Assembly: GCF_003018115.1 (NCBI RefSeq)
Contig: NZ_CP027457.1
Reading direction: 5' to 3' (one strand)
DNA length: 64,000 nucleotides
Source: Escherichia coli
GTDB lineage: Bacteria > Pseudomonadota > Gammaproteobacteria > Enterobacterales > Enterobacteriaceae
The notes beneath the pieces were generated by a model that was given only the letters and a program-made list of their open reading frames with translations, ran no database searches and had not been told where the DNA came from. Shown here piece by piece: positions 5,362-15,017 of this stretch; the stretch's first letter is position 1, and every line of letters starts with the position of its first letter. The position numbers were made by a program, and so were the translations under genes.

Positions 5362-6639
5362 TTACTTGCTGCTAGCTATTGCGGGGGCGCTATCAGCAGT
5401 ACGAATTTTTTGGAACAGCAAAAAGGTAAAGACAATCACCATGGCAAGCGCCGCCATTCCCATCAGCCACATATTGCGGTAGGCTTCTGCTGCGGGCAGG
5501 GTGTCTTGCCAGTGGCCGATAATTGGGTAAACGAAGACATCCGGCAGGAATCCAATCACCGAACAAATACCTACCGTGGTGCCCATAATGTAAGACGGTG
5601 TTCTCGCTTCGCCAGGGCAGGCCCAGTACAGCCCGCGTGAGGCGTAACAGGTGAATCCCAGCAGTATAATCAGGCCAATCCCCATCGCGACCGATTGCGG
5701 GTTAGAGTTCGTGACGAGCAGGGCAGTTAACGCCAGCAGGCCGAGTACGGAAAGGATTTGGATCACGCGGGTAGGGGATTTCACTTTACTGTAGGTGGTG
5801 ATAATGCCGCCAAGTGGGCCGCACAGCGCGCGGAAGATTTTGTTGATCACAATCCCCATGTAGCTCGCCGCCACCAGCGACATGCCGTACATTTCGGTCA
5901 GATAGTTGGTGGAGTAACTCAGAATGGCGTAGATGGTGAAGACACCAAAAATCACCATGCTGCAATACCAGGTGGTGCTGATGCGCAAAACGGCCAGGAT
6001 GTCGCTAAGCTGGAATGACTGTTTTTCTTCGTTATTGGCACTGCGCAGGTTGTTGTTATCGCTAACAAAAAACCAGCACAGAATCCCCAACAAGATGTAA
6101 ACCACACTATAGATGATAATGACCGTTTTCAGGCTGGTGCTGTCATCCGGTGCAAAGCGAGAAAAGACCCACATGGTAAACACCGCCAGCGACATTACAC
6201 CGACGCCGCGCAGCCCTTCCATCCAGCCCATAATTTTCCCTTGCTCGCTATGATCGCCAAGCAACGAGGCGGCTTTAATCGACACCGACCACAGCATTAA
6301 AATCGTTGTTATCGCAAAGGCGACCTGAATACAGAGCATTACCCACAGCGGTGGATACGTTGCCATTAACAGACCCAGTAATCCGGTAATGATCATCGCG
6401 GAAGTAATCATTTTGCGGTGTGAAAATTTATCGGCAATAACGCCGCTGGGGGCATAAAGAATAATAGCCGCAATACCAAAGGTACTCATTATTAAACCTA
6501 TCTCGGTATTGCTGAATCCCATAAATTTCGCCATGGGAATTTGATAAATATAACGTAAATAAGCCAGGTCGAAACTAACGCCGCCGCTAAAACTAATTAT
6601 CGCGAGGGTTATCCAACGGCGATATGAGTTGTGTTGCAT
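5362..6639 (-). CDS. yqcE: MFS transporter
   Basis: 425 aa, multiple hydrophobic TM segments; 26 bp upstream of ygcE, likely co-transcribed. Confidence 0.85.
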   Translation of the reverse strand: MQHNSYRRWITLAIISFSGGVSFDLAYLRYIYQIPMAKFMGFSNTEIGLIMSTFGIAAIILYAPSGVIADKFSHRKMITSAMIITGLLGLLMATYPPLWVMLCIQVAFAITTILMLWSVSIKAASLLGDHSEQGKIMGWMEGLRGVGVMSLAVFTMWVFSRFAPDDSTSLKTVIIIYSVVYILLGILCWFFVSDNNNLRSANNEEKQSFQLSDILAVLRISTTWYCSMVIFGVFTIYAILSYSTNYLTEMYGMSLVAASYMGIVINKIFRALCGPLGGIITTYSKVKSPTRVIQILSVLGLLALTALLVTNSNPQSVAMGIGLIILLGFTCYASRGLYWACPGEARTPSYIMGTTVGICSVIGFLPDVFVYPIIGHWQDTLPAAEAYRNMWLMGMAALAMVIVFTFLLFQKIRTADSAPAIASSK

Positions 6640-6663
6640 ATCGTATTCCCATTTGTAATAGAC

Positions 6664-6711
6664 AAAAAAAAGAGAAAAGTAAGCCTCCCTTTCAGGTGGA
6701 TTACTTTTCTC
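6664..6711 (-). terminator. Intrinsic terminator in the yqcE 5' leader (minus strand)
   Basis: On minus strand: gagaaaagtaa - 18-nt loop - ttacttttctc followed by TTTTTTTT, ending about 25 nt before the yqcE ATG (6639). Confidence 0.55.
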
Positions 6712-6760
6712 AGGTCTCTAGTAATTGAAATAATAAATAACATGGAAAGCAGAGGTGTTG

Positions 6761-6776
6761 TGTGAGAGTAATCACG
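6761..6776. promoter_or_regulatory. CRP-like site (TGTGA-N6-TCACG), positioned for a class II promoter reading toward yqcE
   Basis: tgtgagagtaatcacg, 9/10 match to the CRP half-sites. Confidence 0.4.
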
Positions 6777-6817
6777 CTTCTGCTTTTTAAAATTATTTGA
6801 CAATACGAATATCACAC

Positions 6818-6833
6818 TGTGATTACGATCACA
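6818..6833. promoter_or_regulatory. Consensus CRP site (TGTGA-N6-TCACA) upstream of ygcW
   Basis: tgtgattacgatcaca, perfect match to both CRP half-sites; a TTGACA -35-like hexamer at 6797-6802. Confidence 0.55.
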
Positions 6834-6859
6834 TTAGCAGTTATGTCCTTATGCTAAAA

Positions 6860-6884
6860 ATTATCTCCAGTTACCAGAGATAAT
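6860..6884 (+). other. Leader RNA hairpin (8-bp stem, 9-nt loop) upstream of the ygcW leader terminator
   Basis: attatctc-cagttacca-gagataat perfect inverted repeat. Confidence 0.4.
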
Positions 6885-6890
6885 GAGAAA

Positions 6891-6933
6891 GGTAACTTCC
6901 CTCTCGCGGGGGAAGTTACCTTTCTTTTTTTTT
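6891..6933 (+). terminator. Intrinsic terminator in the ygcW 5' leader
   Basis: ggtaacttccc-tctcgcgg-gggaagttacc (11-bp perfect stem) followed by TTTCTTTTTTTTT, ending 25 nt before the ygcW ATG (6958). Confidence 0.75.
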
Positions 6934-6957
6934 GCCTTACGGAAATTGGAGCTAACT

Positions 6958-7743
6958 ATGTCAATCGAATCTCTCAATGCGTTCTCAATGGATTTTTTCT
7001 CCCTGAAAGGTAAAACAGCAATTGTTACCGGCGGGAATAGCGGTTTAGGTCAGGCATTTGCAATGGCGTTGGCCAAAGCTGGCGCAAATATTTTTATTCC
7101 AAGTTTTGTCAAAGATAACGGCGAAACAAAGGAAATGATTGAAAAACAGGGTGTTGAAGTGGACTTCATGCAGGTGGATATCACCGCAGAAGGCGCACCG
7201 CAGAAGATTATCGCTGCCTGCTGTGAGCGCTTCGGTACCGTCGATATTCTGGTTAACAATGCCGGTATTTGTAAGCTGAATAAGGTGCTGGATTTCGGTC
7301 GTGCCGACTGGGATCCAATGATTGATGTGAACCTGACCGCCGCATTCGAGTTAAGCTACGAAGCGGCAAAAATTATGATCCCGCAGAAAAGCGGTAAAAT
7401 TATTAATATCTGTTCATTGTTCTCTTACTTAGGTGGACAATGGTCACCTGCTTATTCAGCCACTAAACATGCTCTTGCCGGATTCACCAAATCCTATTGC
7501 GATGAATTAGGTCAATATAATATTCAGGTGAATGGTATTGCCCCGGGATATTACGCTACCGATATCACTCTGGCGACCCGTAGTAATCCAGAAACTAACC
7601 AGCGCGTTCTTGATCATATTCCGGCAAACCGTTGGGGCGATACTCAGGATTTAATGGGCGCAGCCGTATTCCTCGCAAGTCCGGCATCGAATTATGTCAA
7701 CGGGCATTTATTAGTGGTTGATGGCGGTTATTTAGTGCGCTAA
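6958..7743 (+). CDS. ygcW: Short-chain dehydrogenase/reductase (SDR)
   Basis: 261 aa from ATG 6958 (SD ggag upstream); TGGNSGLGQA Rossmann motif; ORF track start 6883 lies inside the leader terminator and is rejected. Confidence 0.88.
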   Translation: MSIESLNAFSMDFFSLKGKTAIVTGGNSGLGQAFAMALAKAGANIFIPSFVKDNGETKEMIEKQGVEVDFMQVDITAEGAPQKIIAACCERFGTVDILVNNAGICKLNKVLDFGRADWDPMIDVNLTAAFELSYEAAKIMIPQKSGKIINICSLFSYLGGQWSPAYSATKHALAGFTKSYCDELGQYNIQVNGIAPGYYATDITLATRSNPETNQRVLDHIPANRWGDTQDLMGAAVFLASPASNYVNGHLLVVDGGYLVR

Positions 7744-10698: not shown

Positions 10699-11455
10699 AG
10701 CCGAACCGGATGCCGGAATGCTGGCGGAAAAAGAGTGGCGGGCGGCGGCTCAGGGTAATAGCGGACCGGATATTTCGCTACTGCGAAGTTTACTCGGTGC
10801 TGATGAACAGGCTGCCGCCGCGCTGCTGTTGGCGCAGAGAAAAAACGGTACGCCGATGTCTTTAACCGCGTTGAGCATGGGGGATGAACGGGCGTTGCAC
10901 TGGCTGCGCTATCTCATGGCTCTTGGGTTTGAGGAAGCTGTATTGCTGGAGACGGCGGCAGATCTGCGCTTTGCGCCGGAATTTGTCGCTCGCCATATTG
11001 CCGAATGGCAGCGTCAGAATCCGCTGGATCTGATAATTACCGGCTGCCAAAGCAGCGAAGGGCAGAATGGGCAAACGCCATTTTTGCTGGCGGAAATGCT
11101 GGGCTGGCCCTGCTTCACCCAGGTGGAGCGTTTCACTCTCGACGCGCTGTTTATCACCCTCGAACAGCGTACTGAACATGGGTTGCGTTGTTGCCGGGTT
11201 CGCTTGCCTGCGGTGATTGCCGTGCGTCAGTGCGGTGAAGTGGCCTTGCCAGTACCGGGAATGCGCCAGCGAATGGCTGCGGGGAAAGCAGAAATTATCC
11301 GTAAAACTGTTGCTGCCGAAATGCCAGCGATGCAGTGTCTGCAACTGGCAAGAGCAGAGCAACGACGCGGAGCGACGCTGATTGATGGGCAAACGGTAGC
11401 AGAAAAAGCTCAAAAGCTATGGCAGGACTATTTACGCCAAAGGATGCAGCCATGA
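10676..11455 (+). CDS. ygcR: Electron-transfer flavoprotein beta subunit (FixA-like)
   Basis: 259 aa from ATG 10676 with SD aggagg; overlaps the ygcS stop. Confidence 0.85.
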   Translation: MNILLAFKAEPDAGMLAEKEWRAAAQGNSGPDISLLRSLLGADEQAAAALLLAQRKNGTPMSLTALSMGDERALHWLRYLMALGFEEAVLLETAADLRFAPEFVARHIAEWQRQNPLDLIITGCQSSEGQNGQTPFLLAEMLGWPCFTQVERFTLDALFITLEQRTEHGLRCCRVRLPAVIAVRQCGEVALPVPGMRQRMAAGKAEIIRKTVAAEMPAMQCLQLARAEQRRGATLIDGQTVAEKAQKLWQDYLRQRMQP

Positions 11456-12459: not shown

Positions 12460-13035
12460 TCAAAGTAATTTTTTCGCTAACGTCCAGACCCCGGTATTCG
12501 TGGTGGAAAGCGCCACGACACCCGCGTTAATCGCATTACGCGCATCTTCTTCATCGCACACCAGCCCACCGGCAATCAGCGGTTGGCGGATTTTCTCTGT
12601 CACCCAGCCCAGCACTTTGGGCATACAGCCTGGCAGGATCTCAATACAATCCGGATTCGATTGCGCAACTTGCTTATCAATGTTGTGAAACGAAATTGAA
12701 TCAACAATAAACAGGCGATGAATACAGAAAAAACCTTCCGCTCTTGCCGCTTTCAACATTGAGGCTTTGGTACTGATAATGCCGTCCGCCTCGGTCACCA
12801 GTTTCAAAAACTGAATCACGACTTCTTTATTTGACGCGCCTTCCAGCAAATCAACATGAATAAAAGCATATTTCCCGGCGTTCTTAATCTTTTTAACGAT
12901 ATTACTGATGGTGCAGATATTGCCGTACAACACGGAAATAAACTGGCATTCAGAGTCGATTGCCAGTTGCAGGCTGGCATTATCTTTAACGGCAGCAATC
13001 ACCGGATTCTGGCGGAGCAGGTGTAAGAGGGGCAT
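12460..13035 (-). CDS. ygcP: GlpP-family (glycerol-3-phosphate-responsive type) transcription antiterminator
   Basis: 191 aa; size and family recalled for K-12 YgcP; synteny. Confidence 0.8.
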   Translation of the reverse strand: MPLLHLLRQNPVIAAVKDNASLQLAIDSECQFISVLYGNICTISNIVKKIKNAGKYAFIHVDLLEGASNKEVVIQFLKLVTEADGIISTKASMLKAARAEGFFCIHRLFIVDSISFHNIDKQVAQSNPDCIEILPGCMPKVLGWVTEKIRQPLIAGGLVCDEEDARNAINAGVVALSTTNTGVWTLAKKLL

Positions 13036-13051
13036 AAATTATCCTTATTAT

Positions 13052-13312
13052 TTATCCAAAGCGGTAGGTGATGCCGAATCCGGAAGGCGGATAGCGCCAC
13101 TGTTGTAGTGTGGATTCGTCGCACAGCAAACGGCAGGTGCCACACTCCAGGCAGCCGTGATAATCAACGCGTAAGTCACCTTCCGGTGTGAGCGAAAAAA
13201 GACCTGCCGGACAGGCGTTAATCAACCGTTGTACCATCTGACGCTCAACGGAGTCAGCCGGAACAATGTGCGGCGCATCAGCAACGCGCCAGAGATTATG
13301 GGCTACAGACAT
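13052..13312 (-). CDS. ygcO: Ferredoxin-like protein (FixX-like)
   Basis: 86 aa from the internal Met (MSVAHNLWRV...); CxxC...CxxC motifs. Confidence 0.8.
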   Translation of the reverse strand: MSVAHNLWRVADAPHIVPADSVERQMVQRLINACPAGLFSLTPEGDLRVDYHGCLECGTCRLLCDESTLQQWRYPPSGFGITYRFG

Positions 13313-14574
13313 CGCAGACTCCTGATAACATCGCCCGCCAGATGCCACAGGCCATGACGACGTAAATGACGCCAGAATAACTGGCGCAGCGGTGGAACAG
13401 GTTTATCACCCTGATCCCATAAATCGCGGGAAATATCCTGCATTAACGCAGGCCACGCCCGATACCAGCCAGGGCGTTGCAAAAGCGCCGGAACATGCTG
13501 ATAACGTTGTAGAACATCCCATAGCAGGCTGCGCTCTACGTTGTGATGATAAAGCGCAAACAGATTTTGCGGCTCGCGGTGCTGGCAGGCGCTTATCAGC
13601 GTTTGTGCCGCCGCCTGCGCGCCAGTCAGCGCCATATCCATGCCGCGCACGGAAATTCCGGTATTGACGCAACTGCGCAACGCATCGCCCACCAGCAGCC
13701 AGCCGTTACCGGCGTATTGCACCGGCATACTGTGCAAGCCACCTTCTGGCACCAGATGCGCACCATACTCCAGTGATTCCGTGTTTTTGATAAGCGGGCG
13801 CACTGCCGGATGCGCTTTAAAGCGAGTCAGCAGCTCGCTTGCCGGAACACGACTTTGCGTAAGGGAAGAGAGCGGGCAAACAATCCCTAACGAGAGCGTT
13901 TGTTGATTAGTATAAAGAAATGCGCCGCCGGGTAAGTCATCACAGATCCTGCCGCTGAACAGCAACGCTGCGCCTTCGTTTTTCTCCAGATGAAAACGTT
14001 CTTCAATAGCGGATGTTTCCAGCGACAGCACTTCTTTGATCCCCAACGCCATCGCTTCGCCAGCAGGACGAGTCACTAATCCGTGACGTTCAGCCAGGAC
14101 GCTGTTGGCACCTTCTGCCAGCACCACATAACGGGCGCGGAGAATATCGTCACCACAAATGACACCACACACCCTGCCGTTTTCTTCATACAGTGCATCC
14201 ACCGTCGCTCCGGGGATGCATTCGACACCTTCTTTTTCGGCTTCGGCAACCAGCCACGGATCGAACCGTGCACGTAATACACTCCAGGATTCACCGCCGG
14301 GCTGTAAGCTGGAAAACGTCGTTACGCCATCGGGCGTTAACAGGGAAAGGCTTTCGTGAGTGATGCGTCGTTCAAGAGGCGCGGTCAGATGAAACTGAGG
14401 GAGGAGTTCCGCGAGTGCATGGGTATATAACCGCCCGCCGGAAAGATTTTTGCTGCCGGGGATTTCAGCGCGTTCCAGTAACAAAACGGATAAACCCGCT
14501 CGCGCGCAGCGTAACGCGCAAGCGGTGCCTGCAATACCGGCACCAATAATAATAATGTCGCAGTCGTCTTCCAT
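13303..14574 (-). CDS. ygcN: FAD-dependent oxidoreductase (FixC / ETF-quinone oxidoreductase-like)
   Basis: 423 aa from Met MEDDCDIIIIGAGIAG (FAD-binding GxGxxG). Confidence 0.85.
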   Translation of the reverse strand: MEDDCDIIIIGAGIAGTACALRCARAGLSVLLLERAEIPGSKNLSGGRLYTHALAELLPQFHLTAPLERRITHESLSLLTPDGVTTFSSLQPGGESWSVLRARFDPWLVAEAEKEGVECIPGATVDALYEENGRVCGVICGDDILRARYVVLAEGANSVLAERHGLVTRPAGEAMALGIKEVLSLETSAIEERFHLEKNEGAALLFSGRICDDLPGGAFLYTNQQTLSLGIVCPLSSLTQSRVPASELLTRFKAHPAVRPLIKNTESLEYGAHLVPEGGLHSMPVQYAGNGWLLVGDALRSCVNTGISVRGMDMALTGAQAAAQTLISACQHREPQNLFALYHHNVERSLLWDVLQRYQHVPALLQRPGWYRAWPALMQDISRDLWDQGDKPVPPLRQLFWRHLRRHGLWHLAGDVIRSLRCL

Positions 14575-14651
14575 GTCATGCCCCAGATATCCAGAACACA
14601 ACACCCTAACATAGCGTTACTTAAGGGAAATTGACCGCCGACACACTCTTA

Positions 14652-15017
14652 TCATTCGCCGCGATAGATACAACCTGCGGTACAGGTTTCTTTTACCATC
14701 ACCGCACTTAACAGCGGCACAACGGGTTTAACCTGATCCCAAATCCATTTTGCTAAAACCTCGCTGGTTGGGTTTTCCAGACCTGGAATATCATTGAGAT
14801 AATGGTGATCGAGGCGCTCGTAGGTTGGTTTAAACGCCGCTTTTAGTTCAGCGAAATCGATAATCCAGCCCGTATGCGGATCGACTTCCCCGGTAATTTC
14901 CAGTCGCACCATAAAGGAATGCCCGTGCAGGCGACCACATTTATGCCCTTCCGGGACGTGTGGTAAGCGGTGAGCGGCTTCGAAGGTGAAATCTTTAAAT
15001 AACGTGGTGGACATCAT
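14652..15017 (-). CDS. queD: 6-carboxy-5,6,7,8-tetrahydropterin synthase
   Basis: 121 aa from [35 protein letters not shown] (His/Cys catalytic motifs). Confidence 0.9.

Follow-up and report, generated by a model that had tools for sequence, protein, structure and literature searches.

Probable YgcP-dependent antitermination at two mirror-image, CRP-driven leaders of the Escherichia coli ygc operons

In Bacillus subtilis, GlpP together with glycerol-3-phosphate binds the leader RNAs of glpD, glpFK and glpTQ, in glpD at an antiterminator, and blocks termination. In the published 5′ UTR of glpD (...CGGUCC-UGAGAUGAGGAGA-GACCACAGC...GCUGUUGUGGUCUC-U5), a 4-bp helix (GGUC / CUGAGAUGAGGAGA / GACC) closes a loop of 14 nt in which two GAGA-type boxes occur, and the 3′ strand of this helix begins the terminator. 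Protein-dependent antitermination is also known from the bgl operon, a CRP-dependent catabolic operon in which a BglG/SacY-type protein stabilises a weak antiterminator hairpin overlapping the 5′ arm of the terminator, and from hut of B. subtilis, where the ligand-activated protein HutP binds to short purine-containing repeats (NAG) of a leader and keeps the terminator from forming. The two ygc leaders described here resemble each of these systems. However, HutP is hexameric and belongs to a different protein family from YgcP, and the PTS-controlled BglG/SacY proteins with their CAT-PRD domains are likewise unrelated to the YgcP family. No CAT-PRD antiterminator was found among the annotated genes of the ygc cluster and no RAT-like element was seen by eye in the leader, which sets the ygc leaders apart from the RAT class despite the shared overlap of a weak hairpin with the 5′ arm of the leader terminator and the shared dependence on CRP; moreover, the ygc element is smaller than RAT and starts at +2.

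The DNA analysed, a stretch of 64 kb (the window), covers the Escherichia ygc region and is approximately 98% identical to E. coli genomes. The region is present in 5,092 of 5,426 complete genomes, with a median of one place per E. coli genome. The genes are arranged in the order ygcE, yqcE (minus strand), ygcW-ygcU-ygcS-ygcR-ygcQ (plus strand) and ygcP-ygcO-ygcN (minus strand), and the products of ygc clusters include an SDR oxidoreductase, a GlcD-like FAD oxidase, ETF, an FGGY kinase and MFS/BCCT transporters. The sole regulator-like gene in the cluster is ygcP, located 6 kb from the leaders. Its product matches Pfam PF04309 (G3P_antiterm, 'glycerol-3-phosphate responsive antiterminator') with E = 1.6e-62 over model positions 1–173 of 173 and has the PDB relatives 3KTS (1.2e-27) and 1VKF; the family assignment rests on Pfam and these PDB relatives, since no NCBIfam model matched YgcP at 1e-10. 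Our literature search yielded no paper on the function of YgcP. The 320-bp yqcE/ygcW intergenic region aligns with that of K-12 without gaps and with two substitutions. One (approximately 6844) is in the segment that separates the CRP site from the ygcW −10 region. The other, at 6686, has A in place of the C of K-12 and falls within the apical stem of the yqcE hairpin; it has no effect on pairing because it replaces an A·C by an A·A mismatch. The list of open reading frames contained a 68-aa frame at 6609–6815 (minus strand), which spans the yqcE leader and promoter, and a frame at 6883–7743 (plus strand), which extends ygcW by 25 codons upstream through its leader; both cross terminator hairpins and are almost certainly non-coding.

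An earlier note on this sequence had described, on the minus strand in front of yqcE, an 11-bp stem with an 18-nt loop followed by T8, in the same geometry as the ygcW leader on the opposite strand. The stem (GAGAAAAGTAA, 6711–6701, and TTACTTTTCTC, 6682–6672) and the T8 run (6671–6664) were found as described, and both leaders end at the same distance from their genes: 24 nt separate the T8 end from the yqcE ATG (6639) and the ygcW T-run (6925–6933) from the ygcW ATG (6958). The loop has to be revised. Its 18 nt (6700–6683) fold into 2 + 3 pairs around a GAAA tetraloop, and these apical pairs covary among orthologs. Folding of the 151-nt region gave −34.1 kcal/mol compared with −23.45 ± 3.17 kcal/mol for shuffled sequences (z = −3.36; 0 of 200 as good). 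A simple terminator scan listed the ygcW hairpin and missed that of yqcE because the apical stem of the latter is mismatched; for yqcE the decision was based on folding and on a covariance model built from orthologs. This model scored the yqcE element with 76.5 bits (E about 7e-13); its other matches in the 64-kb window were limited to the ygcW leader (82.1 bits) and opposite-strand echoes. The hairpin is conserved, as the note had expected: it was found directly upstream of 35/35 yqcE and 50/52 ygcW orthologs. In an alignment of 94 sequences, the terminator shows an 18-pair consensus with 89.4% of positions paired and 11 pairs changed on both sides.

Other classes of leader elements do not account for the structure. 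By direct reading, no AUG, GUG or UUG occurs from 6726 to the hairpin, so that the leader lacks the leader peptide of ribosome-mediated attenuation. The best Rfam match in the window was SurA (27.4 bits; gathering score, 100; E 3e-5), which spans both hairpins and was taken as a chance match, and in six other loci no Rfam family overlapped the leader element. A REP element, a class suggested by Romero et al., should occur in many dispersed copies; we found only the two leaders in 64 kb and, in 1.5 Mb of loci, copies solely upstream of ygc genes.

Both leaders correspond to published transcripts. In Table S5 of Romero et al. (2014), ecr2775(u+) is a northern-confirmed RNA of 63 nt (2898527–2898590 in U00096.2) whose abundance varies with the medium, and ecr2774(u+), 73 nt (2898315–2898388), covers the ygcW leader; both carry the label 'simple stem-loop, perhaps associated with a REP-like element' and are assigned no function (PMC4681348). 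The yqcE start is at 2,900,592 in U00096.3 and at 2,898,614 in U00096.2 (from the probe name IG2898371_2898613). With these coordinates and the gap-free K-12 alignment, ecr2775 is placed at 6726→6663 of the window, beginning at the A that precedes AUUACU and ending slightly beyond the U8 tract, which gives a leader of about 62–63 nt (6726 to approximately 6664). Transcription therefore begins upstream of the hairpin and not downstream of it. Correspondingly, ecr2774 runs from about 6865 to 6938; its published 5′ end precedes the conserved CA (alignment columns 7–8; C in 72% and A in 86%) by 4 nt. The −10 element of yqcE is poor. TATTAT (6735–6730) was rejected as a −10 element since it is too close to the mapped start, and a −10 hexamer with its last base at 6733 would agree with the T conserved in alignment column 1.

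The Term-seq data of Adams et al. (2021) contain Rho-independent 3′ ends at both hairpins: for yqcE 36 nt upstream of the ATG (1,557 reads, Rho score 0.61, not Rho-dependent, intrinsic score 11.4) and for ygcW 38 nt upstream of the ATG (40,640 reads, Rho score 0.50, not Rho-dependent, intrinsic score 15.8), with the regulatory-element column left blank for both (PMC7815308). The dominant ends (window 6675 and 6920) are located inside the 3′ arm, 4–13 nt before the end of the U-tract. This could reflect 3′ (exonuclease) trimming; alternatively, the upper stem might be the working terminator, with UUUUCUCU8 as its U-rich tract. Together with the northern-confirmed 63-nt RNA, the Rho-independent 3′ end demonstrates that the yqcE terminator works in vivo. 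We read the two RNAs as terminated leaders of a YgcP-controlled switch. They might instead act primarily in trans by pairing with other mRNAs, their place before yqcE and ygcW being secondary. They are catalogued as candidate novel sRNAs, are discrete and abundant, and carry the terminator hairpin and U tail typical of Hfq-binding sRNAs. However, in every taxon they lie on the strand of the ygc genes and precede these by 10–150 nt, and their conserved parts are those required by a cis switch. A primary role in trans has thus only a very slight chance of being correct, and a role in trans would be compatible with the cis mechanism.

The earlier note had further placed a CRP-like site (6761–6776) about 41 bp upstream of the yqcE leader and had concluded that both divergent units appear to have a CRP-dependent promoter followed by an attenuator. 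Measured from its centre (6768.5), this site is 42.5 bp upstream of position 6726, where the leader begins, a spacing of class II geometry. The perfect CRP site at 6819–6834 lies at an equivalent distance from the ygcW leader. It was occupied in vivo in ChIP-seq experiments in ETEC (PMC4287617) and was bound in vitro with a Kd of 1.7 nM in footprint-seq (PMC12871828). The yqcE-ygcE operon is listed as Crp-activated. Among gamma-proteobacteria, 39 of 39 loci with divergent leaders have a separate CRP-like site for each leader, with its centre 42.5–45.5 bp upstream of P1, the alternative hairpin described below, and this range holds for spacings of 125 to 333 bp between the two leaders. The sequence thus supports 6761–6776 as a candidate CRP site for yqcE. 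In view of CRP binding in vivo and in vitro, the Crp-activated listing, the conserved spacing in 39/39 loci and the mapped leader ends, the reading of a CRP-dependent promoter followed by an attenuator, present twice, stands.

Both leaders contain the motif GAGAAA[A/G]GTAA, and at both 5′ ends six bases are complementary to the distal part of the terminator 5′ arm. The resulting hairpin, P1 (AUUACU...AGUAAU in yqcE, GUUACC...GGUAAC in ygcW), encloses AGAGA-N3-4-GAGAAA (Table 1). P1 and the terminator are mutually exclusive, since AGUAAU belongs to both. P1 begins at +2, and therefore an error of 3–4 nt in the mapped start would abolish it. We collected 80 loci around YgcP/GlpP homologs, with one genome per species. 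A covariance model of P1 and the apical stem gave 97 confident matches, from Escherichia to Vibrio, Photobacterium, Geosporobacter, halophilic Bacillaceae and Syntrophomonadaceae, and the alignment of the 94 distinct sequences was used for the analysis of covariation.

Table 1. Positions of leader, promoter and gene features in the window and of elements in front of BCCT or ABC transporter genes in other loci
Feature	Position	Strand	Evidence
yqcE, MFS transporter, first gene of the presumably controlled operon yqcE-ygcE	5362..6639	-	ATG A at 6639
U8 tract of the terminator	6664..6671	-	sequence; T-run conserved in alignment; ecr2775 3′ end ~6663
Intrinsic terminator hairpin (11-bp base, 2+3-bp apical stem, GAAA tetraloop)	6672..6711	-	fold, covariation, Term-seq
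P1 3′ strand AGUAAU, common to the terminator 5′ arm	6700..6705	-	pairing in both folds
P1 loop AGAGACCUGAGAAA, 14 nt, proposed protein recognition site	6706..6719	-	conservation; two GAGA boxes
Box 1 AGAGA; box 2 GAGAAA	6719-6715; 6711-6706	-	within P1 loop
P1 5′ strand AUUACU	6720..6725	-	complementary to 6705-6700; covariation
yqcE leader 5′ end (start site), A of the conserved CA before P1	6726	-	ecr2775 left coordinate 2898527
yqcE-proximal CRP-like site (candidate) TGTGAGAGTAATCACG, 9/10 to TGTGA-N6-TCACA	6761..6776		sequence
ygcW-proximal CRP site TGTGATTACGATCACA, 10/10	6819..6834		ChIP-seq, footprint-seq, conserved position
ygcW leader, mirror image	6862..6933	+	covariance model 82.1 bits, ecr2774, Term-seq
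ygcW P1 GUUACC / GGUAAC, loop AGAGAUAAUGAGAAA	6870-6875 / 6891-6896	+	within ygcW leader
ygcW terminator; U9	6885-6926; 6925-6933	+	within ygcW leader
ygcP, GlpP-family protein, proposed antiterminator for both leaders	12460..13035	-	Pfam PF04309
Elements preceding BCCT or ABC transporter genes	L047:8056-8126; L048:11589-11659; L055:9792-9860; L056:9737-9809	+; -; -; -	

P1 is paired in 98.6% of positions among the 94 sequences, which range from gamma-proteobacteria to Firmicutes. Pair 9–40 is G-C in 65, A-U in 28 and unpaired in 1 sequence, pair 14–35 is U-A in 66, C-G in 22 and mismatched in 6, and pair 12–37 is G-C in one case. The covariation score of 0.393 compares with 0.244 for shuffled sequences (0 of 500 as high) and with at most 0.13 when the partners were slid, and the result was reproduced on a MAFFT alignment that had not been fitted to the structure. 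In the ygc family, compensatory changes seem by our estimate to have arisen independently only about four times, most A-U cases belonging to one clade; on its own, P1 covariation within this family therefore gives moderate rather than overwhelming support. In P1, column 40 has a partner in 93/94 sequences, but in the terminator it is unpaired in 59/94; the conservation of this column is explained by P1 and not by the terminator. The GUAAC segment is conserved even though the terminator often leaves its last bases unpaired. Outside both helices, box 1 (AGAG) is almost invariant from gamma-proteobacteria to Firmicutes (G20 and G22 100%, A21 97%), as would be expected of a recognition site.

The same bases could be read as DNA. 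GTTAC-N15-GTAAC (+2 to +27) would then be an inverted repeat serving as operator for a dimeric DNA-binding repressor; the palindrome overlaps the start site, and symmetric changes in the half-sites would mimic covariation. However, the one-sided changes are strand-asymmetric, with 20 G·U wobbles on the transcribed strand and no real C·A in the four interior pairs (the single apparent case is a misaligned row). Furthermore, the spacer is asymmetric and conserved, the length of P1 and of the box-1 spacer (0–4 nt) varies with complementarity retained, and no DNA-binding regulator is encoded in the cluster. We rejected the operator on the wobble asymmetry and give it hardly any credence.

Folding energies suggest how P1 and the terminator compete. 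In the nascent RNA before synthesis of the 3′ arm, P1 is the best fold (−0.7 kcal/mol for yqcE, −4.7 to −6.7 kcal/mol for ygcW), whereas in the full leader the terminator outcompetes it (−19.4 versus −7.9 kcal/mol for yqcE, −32.6 versus −15.6 kcal/mol for ygcW). Termination should thus be the default, which agrees with the abundance of the short RNAs, and as P1 is too weak against the completed terminator, a factor would be needed to hold it. It might be argued that no dedicated factor exists and that a constitutive, leaky terminator simply dampens a strong CRP promoter, P1 being without function. The great stability of the terminator relative to P1, the abundance of the short RNAs in ordinary media and the fact that no inducing condition is known fit such an attenuator. 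We consider it unlikely, since it leaves unexplained why the first bases of the leader are conserved and change in concert with the terminator base, why box 1 is invariant outside both helices and why, as shown below, the design recurs beside GlpP homologs with unrelated P1 sequences.

The element is closely associated with ygc genes in the vicinity of YgcP homologs. It was present in 52/52 GlpP-homolog loci containing orthologs of ygcW, yqcE or ygcU and in 0/28 of those without them. As all 80 loci were collected via the protein, co-occurrence with YgcP is in part a result of the design. A search of metagenomes was the only test in the motif-first direction, and it is small (9 complete elements). 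A variable-gap pattern gave no matches in the metagenome scan. A fixed 20-base core gave 13 stretches, among which were 9 complete elements, 9/9 in ygc clusters; YgcP was found in those four whose flanks were longest. The remaining 4 of 13 stretches were rejected as bare chance matches. The genes downstream of the element are ygcW (48), yqcE (33), ygcU (3) and ygcE (3), and in some Firmicutes BCCT or ABC transporter genes; among the loci examined they were never glpF, glpK or glpD. Apparent exceptions are four truncated contigs, two loci with orphan ygcP homologs and no ygc genes, and one diverged copy in Sporomusa. In the latter (AAUUACU-AGAG-UAC-AGAGGAU-AGUAAU...GUCCUCUG-U7), box 2 and the 3′ arm of the terminator changed together, and the promoter TTGACA-17-TATACT puts the start 1–2 nt before P1.

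The two orphan loci (L037, Serratia microhaemolytica, and L043, a Ruminococcaceae MAG) encode YgcP-subfamily homologs of 70% and 63% identity, with neither ygc genes nor a leader element within 10 kb; these proteins either have targets elsewhere or are orphan copies. In some Clostridia and halophilic Bacillaceae, the element precedes the gene of a BCCT-family (betaine/carnitine/choline-type) transporter or an ABC permease (L047, L048, L055 and L056 in Table 1). The replacement of the MFS protein YqcE by such transporters may be a hint at the chemical class of the substrate. One of these loci (L055, Salibacterium) also contains a Bacillaceae-1 RNA (RF01690, 63 bits) at 10858–10924 (plus strand), approximately 300 nt downstream of the ygcP-like gene, and group II intron domains at 14031–14313. 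In the window, the covariance model detected no leader element upstream of ygcN (13035–14700), so that the ygcN-ygcO-ygcP operon seems to be outside the same control, comparable to B. subtilis, in which glpP stands apart.

The leader could also be a riboswitch, whose RNA would itself bind a small molecule and toggle between P1 and the terminator with no protein involved. The conserved nucleotides outside helices and the two folds that exclude each other would fit this reading, and very small riboswitch aptamers exist. On the other hand, no Rfam family matches the element, the candidate aptamer would consist of a 6-bp helix and a 14-nt loop with no further conserved helices or junctions, and the element is tightly linked to a protein family known from B. 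subtilis to bind leader RNA. We therefore regard a riboswitch as very unlikely and return to YgcP as the presumed factor.

YgcP and GlpP belong to the same protein family (PF04309). The 5′ UTRs of both systems contain an intrinsic terminator and a short helix; the 3′ strand of this helix lies at the base of the terminator 5′ arm, and the helix closes a purine loop of approximately 14 nt with two GAGA-type boxes. This likeness between the ygc and glpD leaders was judged by eye. A GlpP-type system would be expected to have a leader with an intrinsic terminator, a PF04309 protein in the cluster and a glpD-like RNA element, all of which were found, and to control genes of glycerol or glycerol-3-phosphate metabolism, which were not found among the downstream genes examined. 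Indeed, whereas the glp regulon comprises glpF, glpK and glpD, the ygc targets are the ygc cluster and never these genes. The ygc leaders thus represent a sister regulon and not the glp regulon, and as the regulon differs, the effector of YgcP probably differs from that of GlpP. Further differences from the GlpP system are the sequence of P1 (GUUACY/RGUAAC) and the boxes AGAGA...GAGAAA compared with glpD, the gamma-proteobacterial host, the class II CRP promoters and the presence of two mirror-image leaders in one divergent region; moreover, the ygc switch is a predicted one.

A generic version of the design was searched for in 26 GlpP loci without ygc genes, and 13 matches were obtained compared with 1.4 expected from shuffled sequences. 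Of these 13, 8 are located directly upstream of genes for type 2 glycerol-3-phosphate oxidase-like or GlpA-like proteins, usually right after glpP. The P1 helices of these eight all differ in sequence (CGCA/UGCG, UGCAC/GUGCG, CGCU/AGCG, UCGUUU/AAACGA, UUUGC/GCAAA). Because complementarity in P1 was a criterion of the search, the independent evidence lies in the excess over shuffled sequences and in the genomic positions. Two matches beside distant GlpP homologs (L070:3378 and L073:4964) precede genes that are not glycerol-3-phosphate oxidase-like, one for a 372-aa protein and one for a 419-aa lipoprotein-like solute-binding protein, and the GlpP family may control more than glycerol and ygc genes. 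The ygc leaders thus appear to be the form that a design common to the whole family takes in the YgcP subfamily. With slightly better than even confidence, we propose an RNA code of the GlpP family that consists of a short helix of any sequence, a loop of 14–17 nt with two GAGA-type boxes and a 3′ strand taken from the leader terminator, YgcP of K-12 with its control of both ygc operons being a working example that has gone unrecognised.

Taken together, the data make YgcP-dependent antitermination at two CRP-driven mirror-image leaders the probable mode of control. In this model, the leader of yqcE-ygcE would be transcribed from a class II CRP-dependent promoter and, by default, would fold as an intrinsic terminator, at which RNA polymerase would release the short RNA seen in LB or glucose. 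Bases 2–7 of the transcript (AUUACU) and the AGUAAU stretch, which forms the base of the terminator 5′ arm, would together make P1, whose 14-nt loop would display AGAGA and GAGAAA; P1 alone would lose to the terminator. By analogy with GlpP, we infer that YgcP would bind to the leaders in its ligand-loaded form and lock P1 and its loop, which would block the terminator and allow read-through into yqcE-ygcE. The same action of YgcP would take place at the mirror-image leader of ygcW-ygcUSRQ. The ligand is probably the product of the FGGY kinase YgcE, a phosphorylated intermediate, comparable with the glycerol-3-phosphate that is formed by GlpK and sensed by GlpP.

Both transcripts were already known and had been published as unexplained short RNAs. 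The architecture of the switch, the link to YgcP and the family-wide RNA pattern were absent from Rfam and from the literature searched, and the earlier note contained neither the alternative hairpin nor YgcP as likely trans-acting factor. The switch would explain two orphan short RNAs from two transcriptome studies. It would also give a sequence-level definition to the RNA target of GlpP, which is absent from Rfam and appears only as 'inverted repeats' in the literature consulted. A protein-controlled terminator of approximately 60 nt might be a portable switch for synthetic biology, a use that has already been argued for the glpD leader of B. subtilis (PMC9604022). With two compact leaders and YgcP, there is an entry to the uncharacterised ygc cluster of K-12 with its 10 y-genes, and reporter fusions could serve in a screen for the inducer. 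If the model is correct, YgcP would set both divergent ygc operons in response to a metabolite, the system would be the second protein-dependent catabolic antitermination system in E. coli after bgl, and the leaders would define a new family of cis-regulatory RNAs with members in both Firmicutes and gamma-proteobacteria.
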